In this document: in pieces, positions 6,579 to 62,832 of the stretch
Layout: every line of letters begins with the position of its first letter
Position numbering within the stretch: position 1 is the first letter of the stretch
Origin: Macrostomum lignano
Lineage: Eukaryota
NCBI GenBank assembly: GCA_002269645.1
Contig: NIVC01001511.1
Span: 186,001-250,000 of the forward strand
Length of the DNA stretch: 64,000 nucleotides
Reading direction: 5' to 3'
Made by a program: the position numbers and the translations under genes
The notes under the pieces: generated by a model
Database searches by the model: none
What the model was told of the DNA's origin: nothing
The model's input: the letters and a program-made list of their open reading frames with translations, nothing else

Positions 6579-6699
6579 GATGGCGGATGACGGGGCTTGA
6601 TGGAGCGAATAGGGGGATGCTGGGCACTAACTGGATCAGCTGCCGCTGAAACAGGCGGGTTCAGGATGGACAAGTAAGGATGAATACTTGCTATGCTTC

Positions 6700-37450: not shown

Positions 37451-37641
37451 AAACTGAAGATCAATAGCAACAAGATGAATAAAAGTCACAAAAGTGTAGA
37501 AAACAGTTGTTATTTTTTTTTATCATCTGATTATCCCAGTTTTAGACATACGGTTAGCTTCTTAAGGATTTGAAAATTTGTTTATCTTTTCACGAATTTG
37601 AAGTTGGAGTTGGAGTTGGAGTTCGAATGCACCCGTGTCAC

Positions 37642-38216
37642 TTAAGCGTCAATGTTTTTGAGATTATGCAAGCGTTCAAGACGACTGATTCTTCTCAACG
37701 ATTTCTGCCATTCGGTAAAAATTAAATCTAAAAAGACTTTAATTGCATCAATTCTTTCTTTGATTCGATCATGCAACGCTGATGACTGAGTCATGAACTC
37801 TTCTAAATTACTCACTTTAACTGTGTTTGTGAAAACTCCTTCTTCAAGAATACGCATCCGTCTATCAGTGGAATTTCTCAGAAGATTAATTGTCGATGTT
37901 AAATTTGTTCTTAAGCCGTTGATTTGCGAGACTACCGAAGTTGTTTCTGACCTAAAGTTCATTAGTTGCGTGTACAACCTGTACATAAAGCTTATCACTT
38001 TCAAACTTTTGCCTGGCCACTTTTATGCGGAGATCTTCTATGTTTATCTGTAGCTGGTGCATGGAGCGCTCTAATTGTTTCAGTCTGTTTTTATTCAGTT
38101 TGATCTCTGGGATCTCTTCATCGCTGTTGATATATCGCCTGTCTAGGATGGATATCTGAGCTAGCTGATGTAAGAGCGTTGTTGCCAGAAATGGATTCAC
38201 CTGCAAAAATAGACAT
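37642..38216 (-). pseudogene. Frameshifted coiled-coil protein gene of the viral block
   Basis: AAAAGATG start at 38216 just after the ATPase stop; protein-like segments in successive frames (MSIFAGES.., ILDRRYINSDEE.., ORF 38004-37642). Confidence 0.45.
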
Positions 38217-38232
38217 CTTTTAATAGCAAATT

Positions 38233-39034
38233 TTAAATTACAGTTCTTTTTTCCTTGTTGATTAGGACAAACTGATAGGGTTGGTTCCACTTTTCGCAGC
38301 AGAGGTTAACAGATTCCTCTTGTGAAATCTTTCTGCTTGAGTTTTTTTGTTGGATTTATAAAATAGGCAAGCGCAATGACCTCACTGTAAAATCTTTTTA
38401 GCCTGTCCTGTGGAATGGTTGAAAACAGGAGAATCAGATTGCAGTTCCCACGAATTGTTTTGTTCGGGAGCTCGAACCAGTTCTGTGCAATGTAAATTAC
38501 ATTACAATTGTTATGTCGCCCTCTTGTAAAATAGTTTTCTATCTGCTTCTGTGGGCCAGTCATACAATCATCAAAGACGATCTAATGCTTTCTCCCTTTT
38601 TCTAGCTCATCTGGTTGGGGTAGAAGTTTAGTCTTTGGATCAGCCTGTGGATCTCCATAGGTGAACACTTTAATGTTCTGCCATTTTTCATTGTCTTTGA
38701 GGTGCTTTGCATATTCAGCAGCTACAATTTCTGGGTTACTGTGAAGGTTTTGTTGGTTATTAAAATATTGAATAATGTCCTCTTTTTTCAGTTTGTTTTG
38801 CAATCCAGAAATCAACATTTTATACTCATCTTGATACAGTGTGGGAGAGTAGATGTGCAGAGTGTCATAGTCGATAAAGCCAGGTCTAAGAAGCATGTTA
38901 AAGACTCTGAATGTTTTACCTGAGCCCGATGAACCAACAACAATGCATCTGAAGTGACTCGGGATTGACTCGTGATGAGAAAACTTAATCTGATTACGCG
39001 TCCAGTGAGGATTGAAGTCGTTTGAAAAGTCCAT
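38233..39034 (-). pseudogene. A32-like/FtsK-HerA DNA packaging ATPase of Polinton/adintovirus type, disabled
   Basis: Walker A CIVVGSSGSGKT; in-frame TAG at 38584-38582 directly before Walker B IVFDD; FTRGRHNNCNVIYIAQ motif; frameshift near 38320 leads to KWNQPYQFVLINK and a stop at 38235-38233. Confidence 0.9.
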
Positions 39035-39309
39035 TTTTTCTATGATGAAAAAAATTTGTATTGTCCTTTATTGTTCATGCGTATCCATGGTTATTTTGTC
39101 GCGGCGAGGCTAGTTTCTGTAATTTCAAATGGAGAATGTCTGATGCCGTAAGCTGCCGAAATAGGACGCAAAAAGGCCGAATTTGAACGCAAAAGTTGCC
39201 CAGTGTCTATGGCTCAGTTGTTTGGACTGCACACTAGCGCTCGCGCCGAAATTGAACGCAAAAACGACGAAATTGACTGCAAAAAGGTATAATAAATCAT
39301 TTAGAAGAT

Positions 39310-39455
39310 GTGTCATTTTGGGACTTTGATGTGTCATTTTGGGACTTGGATGTGTCATTTCGGGACTTAGATGTGTCATTTCGGGACTTAAATGTGTCAT
39401 TTCTGGACTTAAATCTGTCATTTCCTGACTTAAATGTGTCATTTCGGGACTTGTC
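39310..39455. repeat. 21-bp tandem repeat inside the viral block
   Basis: Unit ATGTGTCATTTCGGGACTTA(A/G), ~7 copies. Confidence 0.85.
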
Positions 39456-39477
39456 TTGTACCCTCGAAAAGTACCCT

Positions 39478-39864
39478 TTAGTCAAATTTGAAACCAATTC
39501 CTTTTTTAATGCTAGCTCTCATCTTCTCATAGACTGCAGGGTCCACACTGTCTGGATTTGGGGCCAGCGGAGCCAGCGGGGCCAGCGGCTGAATCTCTTG
39601 TTTAGGTGTTACAGTATCCTTTATCTTTTTGGCTGCTGTGGCTACACTGCCAGCCGCTTCGGCAACGTTCTTGATGTTCTCTTTGTTCTCTCCAATGACC
39701 TTACAAATCTTGGCCCCCTGAGCGATCAAATCGGCAAGGCCATTCCCAGAGCGTTCTTTTCTTGGATAGTGGCCTGCAGGGAAAAGTCCAGATCCGCGTT
39801 TAATGAGATTAAGTTCCTCTTTGTCATAGTATTTGTCAATGTCTTTTTCGAAAATAAGAGGCAT
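39478..39864 (-). CDS. Small Polinton-type accessory protein (possible core/cement protein), 128 aa
   Basis: AAAAATG start 2 nt after the upstream stop; repeated basic-GxG-hydrophobic motifs (KRGSGL, RSGNGL, KKGIGF). Confidence 0.55.
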   Translation of the reverse strand: MPLIFEKDIDKYYDKEELNLIKRGSGLFPAGHYPRKERSGNGLADLIAQGAKICKVIGENKENIKNVAEAAGSVATAAKKIKDTVTPKQEIQPLAPLAPLAPNPDSVDPAVYEKMRASIKKGIGFKFD

Positions 39865-39866
39865 TT

Positions 39867-41137
39867 TTACTTGAAATAATTTTTTTTGTTGAACCGCGAA
39901 AGCAGAAGCTCTCTCGCCCTCTTATCGATGAATTTTCTCTCAAGCATTTTATCCAGGATGTTGACAAATTCTTTTCTATTCTCGTCTTTCATTCCGGTCT
40001 TTGCCGCTCCTAGAAGAACCACTACTCGCTTGTAGATTTCAACTATTCCTTTTCCAGATTTGGGCGGTTGGTCTTGGGGTTGTGGAGTTGGTTGGGTTTG
40101 AAGCTGATGGGGAGGTGATGTAAAAGACCGCTCACTTTCAGAGATGGAACTGTCATGTGGTGCCTGTCTTTGTTGAGGTGTGAAAACTCTTTGATTGATT
40201 CTATTCCTTCGATCTGGAGAGTGTTGTTCTAAGCGTTGCCAGGCATCTGGGTGATTATTTTTATATTTAGCTACTTGAGTCGGATCTGCATTTTCCAGTT
40301 GCCTGAGTACTTCTGTAAAATGTTGTTGCTGTGGTTGTGGTTGTTGTTGTTGCTGTTGTTGTTGTTGTTGTTGTCGTTGTTGTTGTTGTTCTAGATATTT
40401 CATGACTTCCCCCTGATCTGGCAAACCAAACCATTGTTTAAAGCTAGTGCTTGTACTTTTTGAATTTAGTCAGGTTGACACCGCCATCGTAAATGTGTTT
40501 CAGAACTTATGGGACCTTTAGTATTCCTATATCTCTAGCAAGAGAAAAAGTCACTAGATCTCTGTAGTTCTTTAGCTGCTTGTCCGAGATTCTCTCTTGG
40601 TTCTTGGTCATAAAAGTCAGTAAGGCGTCTGTGATAGGAATTTTCATAGTTTCTGAGCCTTTGACAACAGAAATATTTTCCTTATTTATGTTGATATAAT
40701 ATTCCACTGGTTCATTATAAATGTTTTTTTCTCCACATACTTATTCCAAATAGATATTTTCCATCATGTTCTACACGCTCTACTGGTCCAAAAATGTTTT
40801 CTGTCACTTTTAGTTGTGATTGATGTGGTTGTGGTTGTTGTGGTTGCGGCTGTATCTGTGGTTGTGGTTGTTGTGGTTGCGGTTGTATCTGTGGTGCTTC
40901 TGGAATTTTGCCCAAAACCTTTTGCACATGGGTTTGCTGCTGTATGTCGTCGATAGTTTCTTTGACCTGATCAATATTTTTCTTAGCTTCTCCATACCCA
41001 GGTTTATGAAACTCTGTGGCTGCTTGGACAAACTCATTGTAGGATTGTTGCTCCTTATTTATTAGCCCGGTAACTCGTTTCTATGCTTGTGCTAGCTTCT
41101 CCAATTCAGATATCTGCTGTGTACTTTTTCGCTTCAT
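39867..41137 (-). pseudogene. Conserved uncharacterised Polinton protein, broken by stops and frameshifts, with poly-Q/PQ expansions
   Basis: ATG at 41137, TAG at 41083-41081, same frame continues to DGKYLFGI; next fragment TDALLTFM..DKQLKNYRDLV; C-terminal KRVVVLLGAAKTGM..EFVNILDKML..FI resembles the recalled Polinton RLxLL..AGN..E..I..L motif. Confidence 0.55.
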
Positions 41138-42259
41138 TTCTTATTTTATTTTATTTTTAGTTAAAAACTAGCAATCTTCGCCCCCTATGGGGGACATCTG
41201 GATAGAATCTCTGTTCTGTACACGTATCAAAAAGACAGCCAAATAAAGCCTTCACAAGGACAATAGACAAACTGCTCAAATGAAGAGCAATGCGAAAAGA
41301 AAACATCCCAAGACAGCATGCAAGCATCCCCCCCCCCCAGATAGCAAGCATCCCCCCCCAGATAGCAAGCACCCCCAGATAGCAAGCATCCACCTAATAG
41401 CAAGTATCGATCCTTATAGCAAGCATCCACCAGACAATAAGTAGCTAGTGCAACAATTTCCTTAGCTTTATAGTGGCTCCTTTATGATTGGCATGACGCT
41501 TCTTTTTACGTTTGAAATGGTGTCTCTTATGTTTGCCATGGTGGCTCTTTTATGCTTGACATGGTGGCTCTTTAATGTTTGCGATGGTGGCTCCTAAATG
41601 TTTGACATGGTGGCTTTTTTATGACCTACATGGTGGCTCTTCTATGTTTGACGTGGTGGCTCTTTAATGTTTGACATGGTGGATCTTTAATGCTAGGCAT
41701 GGTGGCTCTTTAATGTTAGGCATGGTGGCTCTTTAATGTTTGAAATGGTGGCTCTTTTATGTTTGACATGGTGGCTCCTAAATATTTGCCATGGTGGCTC
41801 TTTTATGTTAGGCATGGAGTCACATATATGTTTCTCAATAGAATCTCTGTTCTCTACAAGTAACAAAAAGACTGCCAAATAGAGCTTTCACAAAGACAAC
41901 AGAAAAACTGCTCAAATGAAGTGCAATGCAAAAAGAAAACATCCCAAGACAGCAAGCATTGCCCCCCCCCAGGGGATAGCATGAAAAGCACCCCCCAGAT
42001 AGCAAGCACCTCCCAGATAGCAAGCACCTCCAGATAGCCAGAACCCCCAAGATAGCAAGCATCCCCCAGATAGCAAGCACCCCCAGATAGCAAGCACCCA
42101 CAGATAGCCAGAACCCCTAAGATAGCAAGCATTCCCCAGATAGCAAGCACCCCCAGATAGCAAGCATCCAATTGATAGCAAGTATCTATCCTTAAATAGC
42201 AAGCATCCACCAGACAATAAGTATCTAGTGCAACAATTTCCTTAGCTTTATGGTGGCTT

Positions 42260-43620
42260 CTTTATGATTGACATGACGCTTCTTTTTACATTTGTAATTG
42301 TCTCTTTTATGCTTGACATGGTGGCTCTTTAATTTTCAACATGGTGGCTCTTTTATGTTCGACATGGTGGCTCTTTAATGTTTGACATGGTGGCTCTTTT
42401 ATGTTTTACATGGTGGGTCTTTAATGTTCGACAGAATGGCTCTTTAATGTCTGACATGGTGGCTCTTTAATGTTTGACCTGGTTGCACTTTACTGTCTGC
42501 AATGATGGCTCTTTAATGTTTGACATGATGGCTCTTTAATGTCTGACATGGAGTCACGTATACGCTTGACATGGTGACTCTTGATTGTTAGACATGGTGG
42601 CTCTTTAATGTTTTACATGGTGGCTCTTTTATGTTCGACATGGTGGCTCTTTAACGTTCGACATGGTGGCACTTTAATGTCTGAAATGGAGTCATGTATA
42701 CACTTGACAAGGTGACTCGTTAATGTTTGACATGTTGGCTCTTTATTGTTCGACATGGTGGCTCTTTAATGTTTGACATTGTGGCTCTTTAATGTTTGAC
42801 ATGGTGGCTCTTTTATGTTCGACATGGTGGTTCTTTTATGTTCGACATGGTGGCTCTTTAATATTTGACATGGTGGCTCTTTAATGTTTGACATGGTGGC
42901 TCTTTAATGTTCGACATGGTGGCTCTATAATGTTCGACATGGTGGCTCTTTAATGTTTGACATGGTGGCTTTTTAATGTTTGACATGGTGCCTCTTTAAT
43001 GTTTGACATGGTGACTCTTTTATATACAACATGATGGCTCTTTAATGTTTGACTTGAAGTCACATATATGTTGGACATGATGGCTCTTTAATGTTCGAAA
43101 TGGTGGCTCTTTTATGCTTGACATGGTGGCTCTTTAATGTTTGACATGGTGGCTCTTTAATGTTCGACATGGTGGCTCTTTAATGTTAGACATGGTGGCT
43201 GTTAATTTTTGACATAGTGCCTCTTTAATGTTTGACATGGTGGTCCTTTTATGTTTGACATGGTGGCTCTTTAATGTTCGACATGATGGCTCTTTAATGT
43301 TTGACATGAAGTCACATATATGTTGGACATGGTGGCTCTTTAATGTTAGACATGGTGGCTCTTTAATGTTAGACATTGTGGCTTTTTAATGTTAGACGTG
43401 GTGGCTCTTTAATGTTCGACATGGTGGCTCATTAATGTTAGACATGGTGGCTCTTTAATGTTCGACATGGTGGCTCTTTAATGTTAGACATGGTGGCTCT
43501 TTAATGTTTTACATGAAGTCACATATATGTTGGACATGGTGGCTCTTTAATGTTCGACATGGTGGCTCTTTAATGTTCGACATGATGGCTCTTTAATGTT
43601 TGACATGGTGGCTCGTTAAT
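42260..43620. repeat. 23-bp satellite GACATGGTGGCTCTTTAATGTT(C/T) inside Helitron-like unit 1 (shorter array also at 41480-41820)
   Basis: Directly visible. Confidence 0.92.
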
Positions 43621-44649
43621 GTTTGAAATTGTGCTTTTTTGTGTTTAGCATTTTGTGTTTTTAAGGTTTTTGAATAAAAAATCTTTTTAAAAAATCTAAG
43701 ATTCTAACCCAGGTCGCTGCATTAGCAGTCCAGTCTGTTCGCATCTATGCTATCTCTTGTCAATTGGAGAACATGAATTGTGGCCCTTATAAATAAAGTC
43801 TTATAGCAAATCGGTTAGAGTAAAAAGTTATGACATAATCAATTTCTCAGTCAGCCAGTATCAGTGTCAATTTAAGTTAGCAATATTGTTACGCAATTTA
43901 AATCAAGTTTTGTGTGCATTTCTTCGGCACTGTTTTCAACTGGTTGTGATGTAAATCCTTATCACAATTGGAATTCAGTCAGTTAGTTTTTCTCTAGCAT
44001 TCTTACAATGCATTTCAGGTCGAAAGAGCTGCTTGACCTTTGCAAAAAAGCATGTTTTTCGAATATTTAATCCCTTTAATATTGAGCGATTTCTTAGCCA
44101 AGATGCTTGTACCGTCCCAGGAAAATTTCTGATCGAATGGTGCAAGTTTGAAGAAAATCGGTTGAGCCAATTTTTCTGAAATCAATCGCATACCCATATA
44201 CATACAGACAACTCATTTTAATAAATAGTACTAGCAATCTTCGCCCCCCGTTGGGGGACATCTGGATAGAATCTCTGTTCTCTACAAGTAACAAAAAGAC
44301 AGCCAAATAAAGCCTTCACAAAGACAACAGACAAACTGCTCAAATAAAGTGTAATGCAAAAAGAAATCATCCCAAGAGAGCAAGCATCCCCCAGATAGCA
44401 AGCATCCCCCAGATTGCAAGCATCCCCCAGATAGCAAGCATCCCCCAGATAGCAAGCATCCTCCAAATAGCAAGCATCCCCCAGATAGCAAGCATCCCCC
44501 AGATAGGAAGCATCTCCCCTCCCGGATAGCAAGCATCCCCCAGATAGCAAGCATCCCCAAATAGTAAGCATCCACCAGACAATAAGTAGCTAATGCAACA
44601 ATTTCCTTAGCTCTATAGTGGCTCCTTTAAAATTGGCATGACGCTTAGT

Positions 44650-46510
44650 TTTACGTTTGAAATTGTGTATCTTTTATGTTTGACATGGTGGCTCTTTTAT
44701 GCTTGACATGGTGGCTCTTTAATGTTTGACATGGTGGTCCTTTTATGTTCTACATGGTGGCTTTTTTATTTTCGACATGGTGGCTCCTATATGTTTGGCA
44801 TGATGGCTCTTTTATATTTGACATGGAGTCACGAATATACTTGACATGGTGACTCGTTAATGTTAGACATGGTGGCTCTATAATGTTTGACCTGCTGGCA
44901 CCTTAATGTCTGTAATGATGGCTTTTTAATGTTTGAAATGGTGGCCTTTAATATTTGACATGGTGGCTCTTTAATGCTTGACATAGTGGCTCTTTAATGT
45001 TCGACATGGTGGCTCTATAATGTTCGACATGGTGGCTCTATAATGTTCGACATGGTGGCTCTTTAATGTTCGACATGGTGGCTCTTTAATGTTAGACATG
45101 GTGGCTGTTTAATTTTTAACGATGGTGGCTCTTTAATGTTTGACATGATGGCTCTTTAATGTTTGACATGGAGTCACATATATGTTGGACATGGTGGCTC
45201 CTTAATGTTCGACATGGTGGCTCTTTAATGTTTGACATTGTGGCTCTTTAATGTTTGACATGGTGGCTCTTTTATGTTCGACATGGTGGTTCTTTTATGT
45301 TCGACATGGTGGCTCTATAATGTTCGACATGGTGGTTCGACATGGTTCCTCTTTAATGTTTGACATGGTGGTCCTTTTATGTTTTACATGGTGGCTCTTT
45401 TATGTTTGACATGATGGCTCTTTAATGTTTGACATGGAGTCACATATATGTTGGACATGGTGGCTCTTTAATGTTCGACATGGTGGCTCTTTAATGTTCG
45501 GCATGGTGGCTCTTTAATGTTCGGCATGGTGGCTCTTTAATGTTGGACATGGTGGCTCTTTAATGTTCGACATGGTGGCTCTAATGTTTGACATTGTGGC
45601 TCTTTAATGTTTGACATGGTGGCTCTTTTATGTTTGACATGGTGGTCCTTTTATGTTTGACATGGTGGCTCTTTTATGTTTGATATGATGCCTCTTTAAT
45701 GTTTGACATGAAGTCACATATATGTTAGACATGGTGGCTCTTTAATGTTGGACATGGTGGCTCTTTAATGTTCGACATGGTGGCTCTTTAATGTCTGTAA
45801 TGATGGCTTTTTAATGTTTGAAATGGTGGCCTTTAATATTTGACATGGTGGCTCTTTAATGCTTGACATAGTGGCTCTTTAATGTTCGACATGGTGGCTC
45901 TATAATGTTCGACATGATGGCTCTTTGATGTTTGACATGGAGTCACGAATATACTTGACATGGTGACTCGTCAATGTTAGACATGGTGGCTCTATAATGT
46001 TTGACCTGGTTGCACCTTAATGTCTGTAATGATTGCTTTTTAATGTTTGAAATGGTGGCCTTTAATATTTGACATGGTGGCTCTTTAATGCTTGACATAG
46101 TGGCTTTTTAATGTTCGACATGGTGGCTCTATAATGTTCGACATGGTGGCTCTTTAATGTTCGACATGGTGGCTCTTTAATGTTGGACATGGTGGCTCTT
46201 TTATGTTTGACATGGTGGTCCTTTTATGTTTGACATGGTGGCTCTTTTATGTTCGACATGATGGCTCTTTAATGTTTGACATGAAGTCACATATATGTTA
46301 GACATGGTGGCTCTTTAATGTTGGTCATGGTGGCTCTTTAATGTTCGACATGGTGGCTCTTTAATGTTGGACATGGTGGCTCTTTAATGTTGGACATGGT
46401 GGCTCTTTAATGTTAGACATGGTGGCTCTTTAATGTTAGACATGGTGGCTCTTTAATGTTCGACATGGTGGCTCTTTAATGTTTGACATGGTGGCACTTT
46501 AATGTTTGAC
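44650..46510. repeat. 23-bp satellite inside Helitron-like unit 2
   Basis: Same unit as in unit 1; 23-bp spacing e.g. 45003/45026. Confidence 0.92.
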
Positions 46511-47199
46511 ATTGTGCTTTTTTGTGTTTAGCATTTTGTGTTTTTAATCTTTTTGAATAAAAAAATCTTCTTCTTGCACTACTAAGATTCGAACCCAGGT
46601 CGCTGCATTAGCAGTCCAGTCTGTTTGCATCTATGCTCAATTGTCAATTGGAGAACATGAATTGTGGCCCTAATAATTAAATTCTTATAGCAAATCGGTT
46701 GGAGTAAAAAGTTATGACATAATCAATTTCTCAGTCAGCCAGTATCAGTGTCAATTTAAGTTAGCAATATTGTTACGCAATTTAAATCAAGTTTTGTGTG
46801 CATTTCTTTGGCCCTGTTTTCAACTGGTTGTGATGTAATCCTTATCACAATTGGAATTAAGTCAGTCAGTTTTTTCTTTAGCATTCTTACAATGCATTTC
46901 AGGTCGAAAGAGCTGCTTGACCTTTGCAAAAAAGCATGTTTTTCGAATATTTAATCCCTTTAATATTGAGCAATTTATTAGCCAAGATGCATGTACCGTC
47001 CCAGGAAAATTTCTGATCGAATGGTGCAAGTTTGAAGAAAATCGGTTGAGCCAATTTTTCTGAAATCAATCGCATACCCATATACATACAGACAACTCAT
47101 TTTTAGTATATAGGACTAGCCAATTCCAACCCCCGTTGGGGCTTTCCGTCAGAACTCCTACCAAAGTTTTCTCACGCAAAAGAAATTTACCCAACTGAA

Positions 47200-50170: not shown

Positions 50171-51799
50171 TTAATAAAAAAATTTGAATATACTACATGA
50201 ATACTCGTAGCTTCTCTTCTACCTGATTTACCTGACGTTTTTTAGTTTTCTTTAGCTAAAAAGTTTAAAATTAATTTTTTTAATAAAAAACTTCTACAAT
50301 TTAAAAATTCGAACCCACGTCGCTGCATTAGCAGGTCAGTCTGTTTGCCTCTAGGCTATCTCTCATTGTTTTGATAACATAAATTGTAGCACTTACGAGT
50401 ACATAATTCAACACTTTCAAAACTCCACGCACAGAGTAAATCATACGAAGCAGTTATGACATAATTTCTCAGCCAGTCTGTATCAGTTTCAAATAAAGTC
50501 ACCAATATGGTTACGCAATCTAAATCTAAATTCAATGGCGCTGGCTTGAATTGTGGAGTTGCGATAAAGTAGGGGTTTGCGATATTGGAGAGTGTACAAT
50601 GAGTATATAAAGTAAAATTCATAGGAATCTTCTTTTTAATGCTGTGCTTTCAATTTTTCGAATCTAAGCAAAGAAATTATATTCCCGAACTCAGCGTTTC
50701 AAGCTCTTTCTAGCAATACAAGGGCACAAGGCTCTCTTCTGAAAGTAAAAAACTCGAAGCACAAACAACGATTAAACATTCCTGCTTTAAAGCATTCAAA
50801 TTCATAAGGTGTACATTCAGCGCTAGCTACAGTGAGAGGCCTGCAAGTTGATGCATTGAAATTAACAACCAAGCCAGCCCATGAATAATTGAATAGTGAC
50901 ACCCGCCCCTCAATTTCAATAACTTAAAGGTGTTGCGCAACCTTTCAACGCTTGTAGCTCTCCACGCGAGTGTAGAGAACCAATGCTATAGTTGGCACTG
51001 AGTTATGATGCAATACAATTCCATCGGCAGTCAGACTCCTTCTCAATCGGAAAGAACTGTTTAAACTTTAAAAAACAGGGAGAAAATCGAGTTTTTCGAA
51101 TATTTAGGCCCGAAAAAATGAAGCAATTTCTTAGCGAAATTTCGTGTACCAGCGCGTCATCAATACGCATCGAATGCAGAAAACCCCACGAAATTCCGAC
51201 CATGTAGAGTGAAGTTAAGCGAAGGTTCCTATAGGTACATAGTTTTGATTTTTAGTATATTGGACTAGCCATTTAGCCCCCCGCTGGGGGGCCTAATGTG
51301 ATGACAACAATAGGTTTTTATTTTGGCCCAAGAGTAACCATTAATTTCCATTTCCAATAATCAAAAAAGACGTTTTCCGATTTTGGCAAAAATAAATTGC
51401 CATGAATCAAAACTTTCACCAGTCAAAAAAGTTTCCTTCAGCCCAAAACCCTATTTCAATCAGCAAATAGTGCTTATCCTTTCAAGGACAAACTCTTAGT
51501 GAATATCGTCATTGGAGTGGGCATGTTCTGGTCCGCAGCAGGAGCTCAATACGCCAATCCCTGACGGCCTTAGACCCATCTTTATTAGCCTAAGTCAAAG
51601 AACCATCAACCATTAACCTTCAATAAATACGCCGGTGTTTCCTATATTTCCTATTAGCAGAAATCAGCATCACTTGCGTGTACTATTTCAATATCTAAAT
51701 TAAATGAGCTACTTGAGCCGTACTACTTGACAATCTGACAATCGCTCAACAATCTAACCCCCTCCCCCCAACAATTCAGTGATCCCCCGAGCAGCAGTT

Positions 51800-53350
51800 A
51801 TACTTAACCCTTGATATCTCAGCAATTCCCCCAGTAAGCCTTGGCATCTCAAAAATTTCCTGAGTAGGCCTTAACATCTCAGCAATTTCCCCATTAAGCC
51901 TTGGCATCTAAAAAATTTCCTCAGTAAGCCTTGGCATCTCAGCAATTCCCCCAGTAAGCCTTGACATCTCAGCGTTTCCCCCAGTAAGCCTTGACATCTC
52001 AAAAATTTCCTCAGTAAGCCTTGGCATCTAAAAAAATTCCTCAGTAAGCGTTGACACGTCCAAAATTTCCTCAAAAAGCCTTAACATCTCAGCGATTCCC
52101 CCATTAAGCCTTGGCATCTAAAAAATTTCCTCAGTAAGCCTTGGCATCTCAGCAATTCCCCCAGTAAGCCTTGGCATCTCAGAAATTCCCCCAGTAAGCC
52201 TTGGCATCTCAGAAATTCCCCCAGTTAGCCTTAACATCTCAGCGATTCCCCCATTAAGCCTTGGCATCTCAGCAATTCCCCCAGTAAGCCTTGACATCTC
52301 ATCAGAGGTCTCATAAGCTCATAGCCCTTGAAATCTCTTTTTTTACCGAAAGCTTGGACCTGTAATCTGTTCCCCGAAGAGCCAAAGCATTTATCTGTAA
52401 GTATTCACCCCATGAGCCTTTATTCTTAGCAATTACACCAGGAATCCTTTATGGTTGATACGACGATTGTTCTATAATTGAACTCTAACCCTAACCATAA
52501 CCCTTAACCTGCAGCCGAGTCACAGCATTTTAGCAACTCCCTCTCAGCCCAAGAATTTAAGCAATTCCACCATGAGCTTTCGAAATCGAAAACTTTCCCC
52601 AATGAGCCTTAAAATTTAGCGACCAACCCATCTTGGCAATTCCACATGAGTCATGGTTGAAAACTAACCCTAGCCCAGCCAAGTCACAGCGTTTCAGCAA
52701 GTTCCACCATGAACCATAGTATTTCAACAACTACCCTTGACAATTATTGAATTTCAGCTACTCCCTTATGAGCCTTTGACATTTCAGCCAATCTCATGTG
52801 AACCTTAGTATCTCAGCAATACCCAAAGAGCCACAGTCTACAGCATTACAGGGATCCCCCGTGAGCGTTGACATTTCAGTGATTCCTTAATGAGCCTTGA
52901 TCTCTCAGTATTATCTCAGAAACTCCTAATTGAGCCACAAAATTTAGGCAATATCCCCAAGTCTTGCAATCACGGCAATTTCCCCCGAGCCTTGAGCCAC
53001 AGTATAATCCAGATATCCCCCCATGAGCTGTGACATTCCTCGATGAGTCTTTAATGTTTGACAGGCCAATTCATTTATGGTATAACCCTTACCTTACCCT
53101 AACAATCTCGGCCATTCCCCAACAGCCACAGCATTCCAGTAATTATCCCCATGAGCTTTTACAGCAAAGAAATTTCCAATGAGCCTTTATAACTCAGCAA
53201 TTTCACAAATGAAACTTGGAATCAAAGCAATTTTCCCCAGAATTACATCATTATAGCAATTCCCCCTAAGCCTTGAGATCTTAGAAATTCTCCCAGGAGT
53301 CTTGACATCAAAGCAATTTCCCATACCAGCCCTGACATCTTAACAATTCA
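51800..53350. repeat. 30-bp satellite inside unit 4, decaying rightwards
   Basis: TAAGCCTTGGCATCTCAGCAATTCCCCCAG; clean to ~52320, degenerate after. Confidence 0.8.
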
Positions 53351-56300
53351 CATTGAGTATTTTATTCTCGACAGACCGCTTCTTTTATGGTTGACATGAT
53401 GATTCTTTTTTCGCTTTTTCTTGCGTTGAGTTTTCTTCTGTTCAAAGTAGAATTTATTAAAAAAATTACAGTGGTTCACTATTACTTTAGCAATGGTTCA
53501 CCAGCAGTTCAGCAATAATTCACCAGCACTTTCCGCAAAATCTGCGAGAAGATGGCCACTTATCTCCATATTTGAACCTAACCCCCATAAATCGGCATTT
53601 TTCTCCACAACAACCTGAAATTATCCCTGCATCTAATCCCGCAAAAAGACTGCAGTTATTTCTTAGCAGCCGGCATTTATCATCCACTTTGCATTCTACA
53701 ACTTTTATTAAAATTAAGCATGTATACCCTCAGCGACATAGAATTGTCCCCGAAGCAAAAAATATTTCACTCAGCAGCTCACGGTAATCCCCTTAACCAC
53801 TTGTACTTAATCTCCCACAGTTAATATTCACTCAAAACTCAATAGTTTTTCGTTACCCTCAGAAGTCTGCCATTATCCCCCAATTAGTCGGCAGTTTTCC
53901 CTCTCAGCAGTCTGCAGCTATACGCTCATAAGTCTTTAGGAACTACCACAACAGTTTGCAGTTTTCCCCCTCTGCAATCTGCAATGATCCCTTCGACAAT
54001 CTCCAGTTCCCCTCAGCAGTCTGCAGTCATTCCATTTGCAGACTACAACTGTTCCATTAACAATTTTCATTCATCCTCTCAGCAGCCTGCAGTTCTCCTG
54101 TCGGCCGGCTCCTCAGTCTCCTCTGCAAACTGAAATTTGCTCAGCATTTTACGGCTTACTAATAAATTTTCGATACATATCGGCAGTCTTGCAAAACTCA
54201 GCATGTCTTGCAAAACTCAGCATTTAGCAATACCTTCAGCAGTTTTTTTCAGAATCGTCTGCAGTTTAGCAATTTCATACTTTCATGGAACTATGCCATA
54301 TACCCATTGATGGGATCAGTACGCTCGTAATACATGTACTCGAAGCAGTTTTTACAAATTAAATTAGCTTAGCGACTTGTGCCAAATAGCAAAAATATTT
54401 CAATAAGTGTGCCTTGTTAATTAAGCATAATAGTTCCAATTGGTCAAAGCACAAGCTAAAATGAAATAATTAGTTCAATTTTGATTGTCCGTTGCTAGGC
54501 AGACTCGAACCTGGGACCTTACGCCTATCCTAAACCTGGTCCTGGTGCCTACAGTGCGGCTACTCCGCCTATTGATCGGAGTGCGACAAAATCAGCCATA
54601 TATCCTTTGGCACTGCAGTCAAATACACAGCAGTGATAGGCTGCTTAGTGCACGGGTTGTATGCAGGCAGAGCCAATGCGCAGTTAAGTGAAATCTATAA
54701 ATTATATTTAACTCTGGAGGAACTACTTCACAGTCTGCAGTTCTTCTCTGGCCGGCACCTCAGTCCCCTTAGGAAACTGCAATTTGCTCAGAATTGTACG
54801 GCTCACTAATCATTTTTCGATACATATCGGCAGTCTTGAAAAGCTCTGCATTTGGCAATACCTTTAAGCAATTTAGCAGCATTGTCTGCAGTTTAGTAAT
54901 TTCGTACCTTTATGGAGCTAGACAATACCCATTGATGGGATCAGTAATACTCGAAGCAGTTTTTACAAATCAAATTTGATTAGTGGCTTGTGCCGAGTAG
55001 CAAAAAATGAATTGCTAATTAATAAACAATGTTTCAATTGAAATTAATCAAAAAAAATGTTCCAATTAGTCGAGGCACAAGCAATAAATTATTCAATTAT
55101 TTTAATTTTAATTATCCACTGGGGAGGCAGACTCGAACCTTGGACCTTACGCCTCGCCTAAACCTAGTCATAGTGCCTACAGTGCGGCTACTCCGCCTAT
55201 TGATGGGAGGACAGCAAAATCAGCCATATATGCTTCAGAACTTCACTTAAAATACATAGCAGTGACAGGCTGCTCAGTGTGTAGGCGTGCAGGCGGAGCC
55301 AATGCACAGTTTATTGAGTGAAATCTATAAATAGCAATTTTCTATGAAGTCCGCCAGTCAGAGCCAGGGTCAGAATGTACACACGCAGCCACTGAGCATT
55401 TTTTCTCTCCTTGCACACTGCAGCCAGTATTGAAGCTTACACAGTGGAGAGAGAAAAGTTATGGCGCAATCATAATTGGAATAGGAATTCAGCCAGTCAA
55501 GAATTCAACCTCGTTTGCCCTCCCATTAAAAGCATTGGGAAAACTCGTTTTTCGAATATTTAATACCTTTAGCATTAAAGCCGATTAAAGAAATTTTAAC
55601 TGTCTTCTTTTCAGATAATTACGAATCTTTTGGCGAAAAAGCGATCAAAATTGGTCAAGAATTGTGGTCTCTAGAGCGTTACAAACAAACCGATCTTAGA
55701 CATTTAGAACTGTCTGCCAGCATCCAGAATTTTTTATTATTTTTGACCCCTGGTACGAGTATTATTGCGCAATTTAAATAGAGTAACTATATTGGCAGTG
55801 GTTCACAGTGAGTTTTCTTTTCAGTTGGCTCTGACGCAATCATTAAAATTGGCTGTGAATTCTCTCGCTGCGAGCAGGTTGATAAAAAATACATTGAATT
55901 TGCCCATTTAAAACAGTTTTTCGAATATTTAATCCCTTTAGCATTGAAGCAGATACAAGAAATTTTAACCATACAATCCCAGGCCAATTACAAATCTTTT
56001 GGCGAAAACGCGTTCAAAATTGGTCAAGAATAGCTCGCTCTAGAGCGTTATGGACATTCATTCATTCAAGCATACAAACCTTAGAGATTTAGTATATTTA
56101 GACTAGCCATTTAGCCCCCCGCTGGGGAGCCCTAAAATGACACTAATTGGTTTTTATTATGGCACAAGAGAAACCTTACTATAATTATCCAAAATGTTGA
56201 TTTCCATTAATCAAAAATTACCTTTTGTCATTTTGCCAAAAATAGATTGCCATGAAATAGAACTATCATCAGCCAAAAAAGTTACCTTCATCAGCCCAAA

Positions 56301-57407
56301 ACCCTTTCTTAATCAGCAAATAGTGCTTATCCTTTTAAGCAAAAACTCTTAGTGCATATCGTCGCTGGCCGGGGCATATTCTGATCCGCAGCAAATATGC
56401 AAATCATTGACGGCCTTAGACCCTCTCTCTTAATTAGCCTAAGTCAAAGAATAAATATTTTAATAAATGCGCTGGTATTTCCTATTAGCAGAAATCAGCA
56501 TCACTTGTGTGTACTATTTCATTATCTGAATTACATGAGCTACTTCAGCCGTACTACCTACCGTACTATCTGACAATCGCCCAACAACCTAACCCCCTCC
56601 CCCCAACAATTCAGCTATCGTCCATGAGCCTTGACATCTTAGCAATTCCCCCCAGTAAGCCTTGATATATCAGCAATTCCCCCAGCAAGCCTTGAAATCT
56701 CAGAAATTCCCCCAGTAGGCCTTGACATCTCAGCAATTCCAACAACTTGCTCTGCTATACACTCAGAGGTCTGGAGGAATACCTCAGCAGTTTTTTTCAA
56801 TTTTTCCCATTGCAGTCTGCATGAATGAGTCTTCTCAGCAATGATTCTTTCAGTAATCTGATAATTTGCTCAGTATTTAGTACAGCTCACTAATCAATTT
56901 TGCGATACATATCGGAAGTCTTTTGCGCAGCTGAGCATTTAGCAGTACCTTCAGCTGTTTAGCTATTTAGCAGCATCGTCTGCAATTCGGGAGCAATAAT
57001 ACACGAAGCAGTTTTTTTACAAATCAAATTTTAAAATGCACTGGCTGAAATCAAATCAAATTCAAATTGACAAAATCAAGTTTGTTTAGCAACTTGTGTT
57101 GAATAGCAAAAATCATTCATTGAGTGTGGCTTACTAATTAATCAAAAATGATTCAATTAGTTGAGGCGCAAGCTATAAATGAACTAATTTATTTAATTTT
57201 AATTATCGGCCGGCGAGGCGGACTCGAACCTTGGACCTTAGCCTAGCCTAAACCTAGTCCTAGTGCCTACACTGCGGCTATTCCGCCTACTGATTGGAGG
57301 GCGCAAAAATCAGCCATATATGCTTTGACATTGCGGTCGAATACATAGCAGCGATAGGCTGCTCAGTGTGCACAGGTTTGGTGCTGGCAGAGCCAATGCA
57401 CAGTTAA

Positions 57408-59752
57408 GAGAAATCTATAAATAGCAATTGTCTATGCAGTCCGCCATTCAGCCAGGGTCAGAAGAATGTACACACGCAGCCACTGAGCAGTATTTTGATT
57501 TCAATACTTTTAAAATGCACTGGCTGATTTCTCTCTCCCTCCAGAGTGCCTGCGCAATGCTTGGCACACTGCCTCTACCTAAAAGGCTCAGAGTCAGTTT
57601 ATAGCGAGAATATGCAGTACACAGTTGTGGCGCAATCAAAATTAGATTTGGAATTCAGCCAGTCAAGAATTCAACCTTGCATTAAAAGCATAGGGAAAAC
57701 TCGATTTTCGAATATTTAATGCCTTGAACATTGAAGCAGATTAAAGAAATTCTAACTGTCTTTTTTTCGAATAACTTTTGGCGAAAGCGCGATTAAAATT
57801 GGTCAAGAATTGCAGTCTGTAGAGCGATAGCTAATTAGAGCTGTCTTCCAGCATCGAGAGTACTTTTTATATTCACCCTTTTAATGGTTGCGCAATTTAA
57901 ATAGAGTTTGTTATCTCGCCAGTGGGGCCCAGGGGCCCAGTGAGTTTTCTTATCAGTTGGCTCTGGCGCAATCATTAAAATTGGCTGTGAATTCTATCGC
58001 TGCGAGCAGTTTGATAAAAAATACATTGAATTTGCCCATTTAAAACCGTTTTTCGAATATTTAATCCCTTTAGCATTGAAGCAGATACAAGAAATTTTAA
58101 CCGTCTTCTTTCCAGACAATTTTGAATCTTTTGGCGAAAACGCGATGAAAATCGGTGAAGAATTGCAATCTCTAGAGCGTTATGGACATTCATTCATTCA
58201 AGCATACAAACCTTAGAGATTTAGTATATTTAGACTAGCTAATTAGAGCTGGCTGCCAGCAGCCAGAATAATTTTTTTATTGCCCCCCTTTAAGTGGAGC
58301 GGAGTGAGTTTTCTTATCAGTTGGCTCTGGCGCAATCAATTAAAATTGGCAGTGAAGTTTCTGGCTGATAAAATTTGCATTGAAAAAGGCCATTTAAAAC
58401 AGTTTTTCGAATATTTAATCCCTTAAGCATTGAAACAGATACAAGAAATTTTAACCATACAATCCCAGGCTGATTACAAATCTTTTGACGAAAACGCGAT
58501 CAAAATCGGTGAAGAATTGCTCACTCTAGAGCGTTATGGACATTCATTCAAACATACAAACCTTAGAGATTTAGTATATAGAGAAATCTATAAATAGCAA
58601 TTGTCTATGCAGTCCGCCATTCAGCCAGGGTCAGAAGAATGTACACACGCAGCCACTGAGCAGTATTTTGATTTCAATACTTTTAAAATGCACTGGCTGA
58701 TTTCTCTCTCCCTCCAGAGTGCCTGCGCAATGCTTGGCACACTGCCTCTACCTAAAAGGCTCAGAGTCAGTTTATAGCGAGAATATGCAGTACACAGTTG
58801 TGGCGCAATCAAAATTAGATTTGGAATTCAGCCAGTCAAGAATTCAACCTTGCATTAAAAGCATAGGGAAAACTCGATTTTCGAATATTTAATGCCTTGA
58901 ACATTGAAGCAGATTAAAGAAATTCTAACTGTCTTTTTTTCGAATAACTTTTGGCGAAAGCGCGATTAAAATTGGTCAAGAATTGCAGTCTGTAGAGCGA
59001 TAGCTAATTAGAGCTGTCTTCCAGCATCGAGAGTACTTTTTATATTCACCCTTTTAATGGTTGCGCAATTTAAATAGAGTTTGTTATCTCGCCAGTGGGG
59101 CCCAGGGGCCCAGTGAGTTTTCTTATCAGTTGGCTCTGGCGCAATCATTAAAATTGGCTGTGAATTCTATCGCTGCGAGCAGTTTGATAAAAAATACATT
59201 GAATTTGCCCATTTAAAACCGTTTTTCGAATATTTAATCCCTTTAGCATTGAAGCAGATACAAGAAATTTTAACCGTCTTCTTTCCAGACAATTTTGAAT
59301 CTTTTGGCGAAAACGCGATGAAAATCGGTGAAGAATTGCAATCTCTAGAGCGTTATGGACATTCATTCATTCAAGCATACAAACCTTAGAGATTTAGTAT
59401 ATTTAGACTAGCTAATTAGAGCTGGCTGCCAGCAGCCAGAATAATTTTTTTATTGCCCCCCTTTAAGTGGAGCGGAGTGAGTTTTCTTATCAGTTGGCTC
59501 TGGCGCAATCAATTAAAATTGGCAGTGAAGTTTCTGGCTGATAAAATTTGCATTGAAAAAGGCCATTTAAAACAGTTTTTCGAATATTTAATCCCTTAAG
59601 CATTGAAACAGATACAAGAAATTTTAACCATACAATCCCAGGCTGATTACAAATCTTTTGACGAAAACGCGATCAAAATCGGTGAAGAATTGCTCACTCT
59701 AGAGCGTTATGGACATTCATTCAAACATACAAACCTTAGAGATTTAGTATAT
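57408..59752. repeat. 1173-bp direct tandem duplication (57408-58580 / 58581-59752)
   Basis: Identical ORF pairs offset by exactly 1173 (57448/58621; 57975/59148). Confidence 0.92.
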
Positions 59753-60656
59753 TTAGACTAGCTAATTAGAGCTGGCTGCCAGCAGCCAGAATAAATTTTT
59801 ATTGCCCCCCTTTAAGTGAGGCCCAGTGAGTTTTCTTATCAGTTGGCTCTGGCGCAATCAATTAAAATTGACTGTGAAGTTTCTCGCTGATAAAATTTGC
59901 ATTGAAAAAGCCCATTTAAAACAGTTTTTCGAATATTTAATCCCTTAAGCATTGAAGCAGATACAATAAATTTTAACTGTCTTCTTTCCAGACAATTTTG
60001 AATCTTTTGGCGAAAACGCGATGAAAATCGGTGAAGAATTGCAGTCTCTAGAGCGTTATGGACAAACATACAAACAAACCTTAGAGATTTAGTATATTTA
60101 GATTTCTGGCTGATAAAATTTGCATTGAAAAAGGCCATTTAAAACAGTTTTTCGAATATTTAATCCCTTAAGCATTGAAACAGATACAAGAAATTTTAAC
60201 CATACAATCCCAGGCTGATTACAAATCTTTTGACGAAAACGCGATCAAAATCGGTGAAGAATTGCTCACTCTAGAGCGTTATGGACATTCATTCAAACAT
60301 ACAAACCTTAGAGATTTAGTATATTTAGACTAGAGCGTTATGGACAAACATACAAACAAACAAACAAACAAATATTAGAGATTTAGTATATTTAGAAGAT
60401 AGTATATTTAGATTGCAGTCTCTAGAGCGTTATGGACATTCAAGCAAGCATACAAACCTTAGAGATTTAGTATATTTAGAAGATAGAAGAAGATTAGAGA
60501 TTTAGTATATTTAGATTGCAATCTCTAGAGCGTTATGGACAAACAAACAAATATTAGAGATTTAGTATATTTAGATATGGACATTCAAGCATACAAACCT
60601 TAGAGATTTAGTATATTTAGAAGATTAGATAGAAGATAGATGGAAGATATAGGAAA

Positions 60657-61952
60657 ATGAACGACCCACTGACACCAGTTTTCTATAAGATTAACAAACC
60701 CATTTTGAGTGATGACAGCACTATTAAAGCGACACAAGTTAGAGTTCCGAGTCACGAGAACCAGAATGAAACTAATTTGGGTCCAGGTCAAACGCTGACT
60801 TTCACATACAACGGTTGTTCGTCGTTGGTCAGTGTCCACAGTCTAAGGAGCGGCTTCTATATGACGTTTCAATTCAAAACTAAAGGAGGCGCAGACGCCG
60901 CTCATGCTAATGATGATCTACACAATGCAAATGTCGCACTAACCAGTAATTTCTGGGCTTATATGTTCAAAGAGTTTAATGTGTCCAATGGAAGTACAGA
61001 GTTGGAAAGAATAGCAAACTTTGGTGTGGTCTATGATACCCAGTGCTTGATTGAGAACCCGGATTTTATTCAGATGGGGAGCGGTGCTGGATTCATCCCC
61101 AATGAACAGACAGGAGATGAGAATGACCCTGGTTACAAAAAGAGAAAGGAGAGATACAACTATGCTCTTGCTGGTGAGAACGATGCTGCTAAGAATCCGC
61201 TGTTTAGGTCTGTAGATATTTTTGTACCTTTGAGGTTTATGAGTGGTTTCTGTAATAGTTTCAATCGGTTGACAAGCAACTTTAGCTACACATTTAGACT
61301 GACTAGAGATGAATGGAACAGAGGAATTTGGTCGGGGGCCAATCATACATCGATGGAGATTAAGCTAACTAGCGTGGAGCTGTACTTAGAAATTATTGAG
61401 CCCAAGACTGCACTCAAAGCTGAATACTTGAAGGCGATTGAGAAAGACATTGATGTTGCTTATACAGCTTATATGTGCAGAGATGAGCGGAATGACGCAA
61501 GACACAATATTTGCATTAAAGAAGGCTCCTGTAGCAATCCAAGGTACATTATTGTCACTATGAGGAGTACGACTAATGTAGGTAGCTATCTACATGGAAA
61601 CGTTCGATCGATTCAACATGAGATCAGTGACAATTTATACCCTGCATTGCCACAAAATGGGAATTTCTCGGAGAACAAGATTAGTAAGTTTTACAATGAA
61701 CTGTCGGACCTGGCTGTCAAAGAGAATAACGGTATTGTTTTGACAACCTTGCAGTATAAAAAACTATATCCAATATTTGGTGTTGATGTGACTGCTAGAC
61801 AAATGCCTACAGACAATAGCCCTGTTAACATTGTGACTAATATCGAGCGGAAAGAATTTGGTGCCGCAACGGCTGTTGATCTGTTTATTATCTATGCATT
61901 TGAGAGTAAAATCAAGGTCAATATGATCAATAACTCGTCTAGTAAAGTTTGA
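60657..61952 (+). CDS. Major capsid protein (double jelly-roll, Polinton/adintovirus hexon-like), intact 431 aa
   Basis: Intronless AT-rich ORF; motifs DDSTI, DIFVPLRFMSGF..F..TFRLTR, PRYIIV, LYP..Q..F, LYPIFGVDVT follow the recalled Polinton MCP pattern; located next to a penton-like gene. Confidence 0.85.
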   Translation: MNDPLTPVFYKINKPILSDDSTIKATQVRVPSHENQNETNLGPGQTLTFTYNGCSSLVSVHSLRSGFYMTFQFKTKGGADAAHANDDLHNANVALTSNFWAYMFKEFNVSNGSTELERIANFGVVYDTQCLIENPDFIQMGSGAGFIPNEQTGDENDPGYKKRKERYNYALAGENDAAKNPLFRSVDIFVPLRFMSGFCNSFNRLTSNFSYTFRLTRDEWNRGIWSGANHTSMEIKLTSVELYLEIIEPKTALKAEYLKAIEKDIDVAYTAYMCRDERNDARHNICIKEGSCSNPRYIIVTMRSTTNVGSYLHGNVRSIQHEISDNLYPALPQNGNFSENKISKFYNELSDLAVKENNGIVLTTLQYKKLYPIFGVDVTARQMPTDNSPVNIVTNIERKEFGAATAVDLFIIYAFESKIKVNMINNSSSKV

Positions 61953-61974
61953 ATAATTTTTTTTCAATAAAAAA

Positions 61975-62832
61975 ATGGAAGCCATAGCCGAAAGACTAAA
62001 CAACATTGTTTCACACTCTAAGGAGAGCATTCCAATCACTATAGCGGGTCGCATTACTGAGTCAAACGGAATCTTCATTCAAAAATTGGAGCAACCACTT
62101 CGTTTGGATCCCGAGGCGAATTACCACGTCTATCTCAACGATTTCACTGGGTGGTCAAATGTTCCCAATGTGACAGCGGAAAATAACAAGTTTTATTAAA
62201 AATGGAAGCGTACTACAACAGAGGTTGTGATATTTCCTGTCAGCACACAGAGCGTGGATACTTATAATTACTTCTTGGAGAACGTCTTCACTAAACGAAA
62301 GCATTTTGAGATACCGGATGAAAGCAAACCAGAAAATAAACTGTTCCCTGTTAGATTAACTTATGATCTAACTGTCATGAGAGTTGTCTTGCAAGTTCAT
62401 AAGGACGCAGAGGTAGAGTTTAAAGATGGCACTTGGTATCGCGAGTTGGGATTTGAAAAGAGAGTTTATGGTGGCGCCACAGACCAAAGCCCGCCGCAGG
62501 CGCCTGGCACTGTTGCTGTGTCCCGGCTAATATCCGGTATGTACTTGGCGCCAAATATCGCTGACATTGTCAAAGGTTTGAATATATTAATTCGCAGCAA
62601 TCTGAGCCATGATTGGATATTCAAGGGCAAACGAACCAACATACTTTTTAACATTTCAAACTCTGTTGCTGGTGGCAAAATGCTTGTGCAAAAGCCAAAC
62701 CCCGTGAAAAGAGTGATTCTGAGTAATAGAGAGATACATGAAATCGTTCTGCAGTTTGAAACAGAGGATGGAGTTGGTGTCGATTTTAACGGGGAAGAGT
62801 TTGTGCTAACAATTATTTTTGAGAGAATGTGA
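61975..62832 (+). pseudogene. Minor capsid protein (penton, single jelly-roll) with one in-frame stop
   Basis: NVPNVTAENNKFY then TAA at 62197-62199; same frame continues to ELGFE..NILIRSNL..PNP..IVLQFETEDG..VDFNGEEFVLTI, the typical Polinton penton C-terminus. Confidence 0.85.

Follow-up and report, generated by a model that had tools for sequence, protein, structure and literature searches.

The question raised by this locus is whether two short blocks of virus-like genes, facing away from each other in the genome of the flatworm Macrostomum lignano, are the halves of a single integrated virus. The window, by which we mean the whole stretch of DNA analysed, comprises 64,000 nucleotides (NCBI GenBank assembly GCA_002269645.1, contig NIVC01001511.1, positions 186,001 to 250,000 of the forward strand), and the two blocks lie in its right part with a stack of Helitron-like units between them. 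An earlier note, made from the letters alone, had read them as one endogenous Polinton/adintovirus-like element. Our analysis makes it likely that one divergent Polinton-type virus (a preplasmiviricot with a double jelly-roll, or DJR, capsid) was inserted upstream of a CEP135-like gene, decayed and was split by the stack. All genes named in the note are where it had placed them, and its description of AT-rich, tightly packed open reading frames (ORFs) with AAAATG starts holds as well: the viral ORFs have a GC content of 36-46% (29-45% at third codon positions, GC3) versus 54-68% (GC3 68-82%) in three in-frame host exons, neighbouring genes are separated by 22 bp (capsid protein to penton) and 2 bp (Q-rich gene to 128-aa ORF), and the AAAATG context occurs at 5 of 7 viral starts.

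The right block opens with the gene for the major capsid protein (MCP), an uninterrupted ORF of 431 aa on the plus strand (60657-61952). Its product matches the Pfam family PF21738 (E=2.9e-8, 33.7 bits against a cut-off of 27), and 14 homologues were found among 3,814 candidates, seven at 66-76% identity, four at 40-43% and three at 22-25%. A structural model built from 15 sequences is of moderate confidence (predicted local distance difference test score, pLDDT, 59; predicted template modelling score, pTM, 0.63). When this model was searched against the PDB, all 22 rows shown were capsid entries of DJR viruses, including Sputnik, mavirus, PBCV-1, EhV, iridovirus and PRD1, and the best was the Sputnik MCP (E=4e-13, template modelling score 0.54); the model also retrieves DJR capsid proteins among predicted viral structures. 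In the Atlas, a stored relative of the MCP leads to one DJR cluster and one mostly eukaryotic cluster, mostly without names, and no match was found among 50,697 phage records. From its family match and predicted fold, we take the MCP to be a DJR capsid protein.

Immediately downstream lies a pseudogene of the penton, or minor capsid protein (61975..62832, plus strand), of 285 codons with an in-frame stop at codon 75; for all comparisons the protein was read with X at this single stop. No Pfam family matches it. Twelve homologues with 53-63% identity were recovered from 530 candidates, and a profile search collected 504 proteins at E<=0.001; the alignment combined 121 of the 148 new listed proteins with 9 of the 12 close homologues, the 27 omitted being mostly fragments or overlong. 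The structural model has a pLDDT of 93 and, among 48,161 chains, is closest to the mavirus penton (Z 13.2, root-mean-square deviation 7.8, 235 aligned residues). The chains at ranks 2-7 (Z 8.0-13.1) come from capsid entries of DJR viruses and are, as we take it, pentons; the highest-ranked non-viral chain reaches Z 6.7. A comparison with predicted viral structures likewise yields proteins named as minor capsid or penton proteins, and in the Atlas the clusters of a stored penton relative are mainly viral and mostly without names. The repaired gene is thus predicted to fold as a penton, and structure prediction of both proteins, which the note had proposed, led to the capsid families that it had expected.

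The third hallmark gene, in the left block, is a pseudogene of an A32/FtsK-type packaging ATPase (38236..39034, minus strand). Read with X, it matches Pox_A32 (E=1.2e-5, 25.4 bits against a cut-off of 22.8), with Walker A at residue 34 and Walker B at 152. It is interrupted by an in-frame stop at codon 151 and by a frame change that we place near 38340-38320, because the C-termini of homologues carry on in the second frame; the gene ends at about 38236. Its homologues, 22 among 157 candidates, again fall into groups, with nine at 67-79% identity, the best of them at 78-79%, five at 47-55% and eight at 34-38%. When ten proteins were compared with PHROGs, the only matches were one of the ATPase to terminase ATPases and two weak ones to families of unknown function. 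Thus a DJR MCP, a penton (in a gene with a stop) and an A32/FtsK-family ATPase (in a broken gene), the virion module that the note had recognised, are supported by Pfam families, structure matches and homologues.

Genomic context for these proteins came from a scan of contigs in prokaryotic genomes, in which 2 of 36 pattern matches were confirmed. Both are Polinton-type contigs in metagenome-assembled genomes (MAGs), L001 (CBDDTI010000304.1, 1-14689, 14.7 kb, in a bacterial MAG) and L002 (1-3162), and their MCPs are 22-24% identical to that of the window. Their presence in bacterial MAGs probably reflects binning contamination with eukaryotic Polinton-type sequence. L001 encodes an integrase with rve and chromo domains, PLA2, an ATPase, a penton, a pX-like gene, an adjacent pair of 290-aa and 155-aa proteins, and an MCP. 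The start of a long ORF in L001 is one that we take to be pPolB, with Pfam matches there only to Rho_N and endonuclease VII, and a 377-aa ORF without a Pfam match is presumably similar to a Penelope-type RT/GIY-YIG fragment. The window resembles L001 in its ATPase (34% identity, E=6e-33), MCP (24%) and penton (21%), apparently in the adjacent pair of small genes, and in a narrow gap between divergent starts; it differs in that the rve+chromo integrase, PLA2 and pX-like gene are present in L001, where the structural genes are on one strand.

The three hallmark genes show parallel tiers of relatives (close, second and canonical-type), all 12 of the 12 penton homologues belonging to the close tier. 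In trees, each window gene stands among its close tier and far from L001. With all homologues included, the ATPase falls in a clade of 10 rows (support 100/99) and the MCP in a group of 12 rows (100/100) that includes the second tier on a long branch; a quick version of the penton tree without bootstrap, built from 24 homologues (all 12 of the close tier plus the 12 best distant proteins of full length), gave a clade of 13 rows with a Shimodaira-Hasegawa-like approximate likelihood ratio test value of 99. The MCP and ATPase phylogenies that the note had called for therefore place each gene in its own close tier far from L001, with the reservation that the close and second tiers of the MCP are not separated. 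Since all three hallmark genes belong to compact, unnamed clades far from the canonical Polinton, we prefer a single insertion that was later split. The blocks agree in other respects: invariant columns are broken at similar frequency in both (4/79 in the MCP, 3/68 in the ATPase and 2/57 in the penton; 3.5-5.1%), codon usage correlates between left and right blocks (r=0.46) and not with the host (-0.15 for each), and each hallmark gene is present only once in the window.

The interval between the blocks, which the note had left undescribed, consists of about nine non-autonomous Helitron-like units stacked head to tail on the minus strand (41168..60647, the right edge being uncertain within 60621-60647). 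Units with 5'-TC and 3'-CTRR termini, a sub-terminal hairpin, an A|T target and no terminal inverted repeat (TIR) have the termini and target rule of Helitrons as given in PMC4778049. A GC hairpin followed by CTAG|T occurs at 41171, 44234, 47119, 51268, 56106, 58238, 59411 and 59761; the eight ends are all on the minus strand, with none on the plus strand; over 200 shuffles the count averaged 0.41 and never exceeded 3. Six of the 8 internal junctions read CTAG|TC. Within the window, 87% of 41168-60647 is self-repeated, versus 0-6% of the viral blocks, and the units hold internal minisatellites of 16-30 bp; the stack is a host repeat rather than part of the virus. No unit has a copy outside the stack within the window, no coding remnant was found in its less repetitive parts, and the stack lacks a RepHel gene. 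At the MCP end the identity between duplicates is 100%, and further left it drops to 70-87%, as expected if new units join at the 5' side; the identical units at the MCP end could instead reflect recent tandem duplication or assembly expansion. Identical duplications of 624 bp and 222 bp (aligned) were seen in 57400-60330. By eye, motifs resembling tRNA boxes occur within the stack at 54490-54560, 55125-55200 and 57215-57290 and also near 43700, 46585 and 50310, none reaching the gathering score of Rfam, which returned 0 matches over 34-64 kb. In maize, head-to-tail joins of unlike Helitrons have been explained by consecutive insertion (PMC2267711). The arrays are alike in their 5'-TC/CTAG-3' ends, sub-terminal hairpin, A|T target in AT-rich DNA and CTAG|TC joins of dissimilar units; they are unlike in that a pair is described there, as compared with about nine units over 19.5 kb here.

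It is the position of this stack that speaks most directly to the history of the two blocks. Its edges lie 30 bp from the start codon of the Q-rich gene on the left and 9 bp from that of the MCP on the right, so that no gene is cut, and the summed flanks (39 bp) compare with the 34 bp that separate the divergent starts in L001. Accordingly, the single-element claim of the note is favoured by the anatomy of the junctions and by the matching tiers. By known biology, the parent virus had an icosahedral shell of MCP trimers and penton pentamers, into which the ATPase pumped its linear double-stranded DNA genome. GxG motifs are linked to cleavage sites, and a viral cysteine protease would have cleaved the core proteins there, while pPolB and an rve integrase would have copied and inserted the genome, their genes having since been deleted or lying beyond 64 kb. 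A single virus would have been inserted upstream of the host gene that begins at 34308 on the minus strand, which has PDB matches to CEP135/basal-body proteins (E=2.6e-12 to 5.8e-6), and would then have decayed. Helitron-like units would have piled up in the gap between the divergent starts and pushed the blocks 19.5 kb apart. Today the locus most likely has no activity and is a fossil.

The remaining genes of the left block were compared with the small proteins of L001 and L002. A Q-rich gene (39867..41137, minus) with at least four breaks is followed by an intact 128-aa basic protein (39478..39864, minus) with three GxG motifs and an amphipathic stretch. The C-terminal piece of the Q-rich gene scores against the L002 protein as no shuffle does (0/500), and against the L001 protein as 10/500 do; its three pieces are colinear with the L001 protein, the N-terminal and middle pieces alone not being significant, and hhalign gave E=0.0019 with a probability of 14%. 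For the 128-aa protein, pairwise similarity to the L001 and L002 proteins is weak (10/500 and 149/500 shuffles), and hhalign gave E=0.03 over only 6 columns. The last GxG is at an equal distance from the C-terminus in all three, at 122/128 in the window, 149/155 in L001 and 128/134 in L002, where the equivalent gene pair precedes the MCP. We presume that the L001 and L002 probes are GasderminX and Cupiennin. On sequence, position and synteny, the Q-rich gene is a probable GasderminX-type core protein and the 128-aa protein a probable Cupiennin-type (pVI-like) one. GasderminX and Cupiennin are hallmarks of the virion modules of Beta-class adintoviruses (PMC8502044, section 3.1-3.2); assigning the window pair to such a module is a lead and no result. 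The GxG motifs of these core proteins also hint at a former protease.

Several observations weigh against a single Polinton-type element. We infer rather than observe the single element, because no relative has been seen in which a single contig carries both this clade's MCP and its ATPase. Only relatives of the MCP and penton (P0002 and P0025) share a contig size (3702), which is circumstantial, and gene order is unlike that of L001, where ATPase, penton and MCP are on one strand. Two copies of one family would be expected to agree in their tiers and codon usage as well, and the invariant-column counts are small. The close tier of the MCP is not separated as a clade from the second tier, and the pLDDT of the MCP model is only 59. 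The GasderminX and Cupiennin assignments combine weak scores with synteny, and two-sequence hidden Markov models (GasderminX-like and Cupiennin-like) missed both proteins among 1,924 window peptides. Only four distinct types occur among the eight Helitron ends, so that the shuffle test overstates their independence. Finally, the genes and termini that the note had reported as not visible were likewise not found in 34-64 kb. Of 62 frames in the less repetitive parts of 34.3-64 kb, none matched any Pfam family at E<=0.01, those of pPolB, integrase and protease included; a pPolB probe from L001, covering the N-terminal part only, found nothing in the window, the L001 integrase had a best window match of E=0.22, and Ulp1/adenain-type proteases gave no Pfam match in the 62 frames, a general scan without a dedicated probe. 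Self-BLAST found no inverted repeat at E<1e-5 touching 34-64 kb, a partner outside the window being invisible to it, and no target-site duplication (TSD), which in Polintons measures 5-8 bp, was found. Short inverted repeats at both ends look like chance. The one rve domain in the window lies inside a gypsy pol (15.4-19.0 kb) and was rejected as the integrase of the element.

An unlikely alternative, though the best placed of those considered, is that the blocks come from one family without having been neighbours, either because two Helitron insertions in one element recombined with loss of the middle, which may have carried pPolB, integrase and protease, or because pieces of two copies were joined via the stack. 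Such a loss would suit the ~6 kb of viral sequence left, compared with the 13-25 kb reported for full Polintons in 10.1101/2023.08.22.554363. Related units of the stack could recombine, and the difference in order from L001 suits this course too. It meets its difficulty at the junctions, both of which lie just upstream of a start codon without cutting a gene and leave flanks so close to the L001 gap; two separate insertions would each need such a landing site.

What kind of virus the single element was bears on the next alternative. Polintons/Mavericks form the class Polintoviricetes (definition in PMC11071308), and adintoviruses in the sense of Starrett and Buck are defined in PMC11071296 by an OTU-bearing PolB and an rve integrase with chromodomain. 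A further criterion for adintoviruses is a Hexon that BLASTp recognises reciprocally with the Alpha and Beta references. The element is built like the virion module of Polintons and adintoviruses and is known here from virion-module genes alone; the label given by the note fits the module; taken strictly, it would require pPolB and an rve integrase, neither of which turned up in the window. With Polintons/Mavericks it shares the DJR MCP, penton and packaging ATPase, intronless tight genes and integration in a eukaryotic genome, and it differs in that pPolB, RVE-INT, an Ulp1-family protease and TIR/TSD were not found in the window, in its small size, and in an MCP only 22-25% identical to those of canonical type. 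It resembles the Beta-class adintovirus module in a probable GasderminX-Cupiennin pair together with Hexon, Penton and FtsK-type ATPase as in PMC8502044, and is unlike it in that no PolB, integrase or Adenain was seen in the window and the pair is weakly supported. Even the human genome is reported to contain decayed relics of such viruses.

It is distinctly improbable, in our view, that the element was instead of the Polinton-like virus (PLV) type, or a satellite virus, that had never possessed pPolB or an rve integrase and owed its insertion to mobilisation in trans or to passive capture. PLVs have a replication protein other than pPolB, a helicase or primase-polymerase, and sometimes a tyrosine integrase. 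The likeness to them consists in a virion module without visible pPolB or RVE-INT, and the absence of a replication or integration gene and of a TIR from 34-64 kb, as well as the distance of the MCP from canonical ones, would suit such an origin. The best match of the penton among predicted viral structures is a protein of Tetraselmis viridis virus S1, and butterfly Polintons without polB seem still to be mobile (10.1101/2025.02.07.637071). The 62 frames showed no alternative PLV-type replication protein or tyrosine recombinase either. Against this origin, the nearest relatives with genomic context, L001 and L002, are Polinton-type, L001 having an rve+chromodomain integrase. The apparent GasderminX/Cupiennin pair is a hallmark of Beta-class adintovirus virion modules according to PMC8502044. 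Also, the window stops 0.9 kb past the last viral ORF, a short broken one with an AAAATG start (62860..63137, minus, lower boundary approximate) that has no Pfam match, runs convergent to the penton and is probably viral; it suggests genes further right, and more of them may follow since the window ends so soon. Of the three options left by the note (a truncated element, one extending past 64 kb, or an integrase-less PLV-type element), the last is the least likely, since a GasderminX/Cupiennin-type pair like that of animal Polintons is apparently present in the left block. A broader proposition, which we regard as improbable, is that the close relatives, which are 53-79% identical as full-length proteins and lie on short contigs, represent a branch of DJR viruses at family level. 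Its capsids would be about 25% identical to those of canonical Polintons; it would keep core proteins of adintovirus type, have a virion module that is rearranged and divergent, and lack a pPolB or rve integrase of its own. If true, this would be an animal virus, either a satellite with the virion module only or one of PLV type, and this locus would be its germline fossil. An adomavirus, suggested by LO7 and LO5 among the structure matches, was rejected because the locus has Polinton-type relatives by sequence and includes an A32 ATPase.

The preferred history, one inserted virus that then decayed, is reflected in the state of the genes, most of which are broken in the left block, a point that the note had not made: there is one break in the penton, two in the ATPase, at least four in the Q-rich gene and at least two in the coil gene described below, while the MCP and 128-aa ORF are open. 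These breaks are unlikely to be assembly errors, because another element of the window, a gypsy retrotransposon, retains an open frame of 1202 aa and has long terminal repeats (LTRs) of 204 bp that are identical to each other; assembly error was rejected as their main cause, and the ATPase frame change, near an A-run, could be one. That the MCP frame was held open by selection, as a capsid protein co-opted by the host, with transcription perhaps starting from the Helitron end next to it, is most improbable despite its being intact beside broken neighbours, since the chance of no break at the local rate, 0.07-0.10, is not small and its invariant columns are damaged as often as those of the broken genes (tied highest of 11 rows), its end branch of 0.23 also being the longest in the tree bar one distant row that ties with it.

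Endogenous Polinton-type regions are common, so one more decayed copy is ordinary. A survey reports 781,111 double-stranded DNA viral regions in 7,103 assemblies, mostly Orthopolintovirales and PLVs and with insertions in Rhabditophora included (main text of 10.1101/2025.04.19.649669, the supplements of which may list this region); such regions are also reported in corals (PMC11131425), and Polintons with transposable-element insertions or without polB in 10.1101/2025.02.07.637071. The locus is a pseudogenised relic; its kind is very common, its lineage divergent. The earlier expectation of an undescribed lineage agrees with the absence of a useful name for the clade in the sources searched: listings and the opening lines of abstracts on Macrostomum together with Polintons, Mavericks or Helitrons gave no account of such an element or clade (Repbase, subscription journals and bioRxiv supplements being outside the search), and one supplement file of PMC8502044, perhaps incomplete, shows no flatworm term. 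Capsid, penton and ATPase represent a compact clade without an informative database name and can serve as probes for intact members, and the locus gives a chromosomal anchor to otherwise host-less sequences. It is also a clear case of a Helitron stack that grew between divergent viral genes and put 19.5 kb between the parts of one element; virus finders based on gene clusters could count these as two fragments.

Two minor features complete the left block. Downstream of the ATPase lies a broken accessory gene (37642..38216, minus) with pieces in at least three frames, coiled-coil-like by inspection, for which no Pfam family exceeded the cut-off. Between the ATPase and the 128-aa ORF, at 39075..39452, we assign a short broken plus-strand frame and a 21-bp tandem repeat, of which a 105-aa minus-strand ORF there is probably a product. 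Adjoining the block on its left is a 191-bp tandem repeat (36524..37466; 4-5 copies, 97% identity), preceded by a short unique GC-rich stretch (36290-37466 together) and without a partner anywhere else in the window; it could be a host satellite or a leftover of the element terminus. At the other end, 63170-64000 has no long ORF; a 30-mer occurs in it twice, and 63668-63740 holds a perfect inverted pair of 12 bp. This segment may be a terminal or regulatory part of the element.

The first 34 kb of the window are host sequence, with GC-rich exons among introns full of minisatellites. In the CEP135/Bld10-like gene (about 10300-34308, minus), nearly every intron is a different minisatellite array, with periods of 8-67 bp. 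The Ty3/gypsy element (15059-19389, minus) sits in a 33-bp minisatellite inside one of these introns; it is intact, with a 311-aa gag-like frame beside the pol frame and 100% identity between its LTRs, and its insertion is very recent. Two further host exons on the minus strand encode a Myb-like domain (5859-6626, E=8.8e-6) and the N-terminus of an FAD/NAD-binding oxidoreductase (532-930, E=4e-10).

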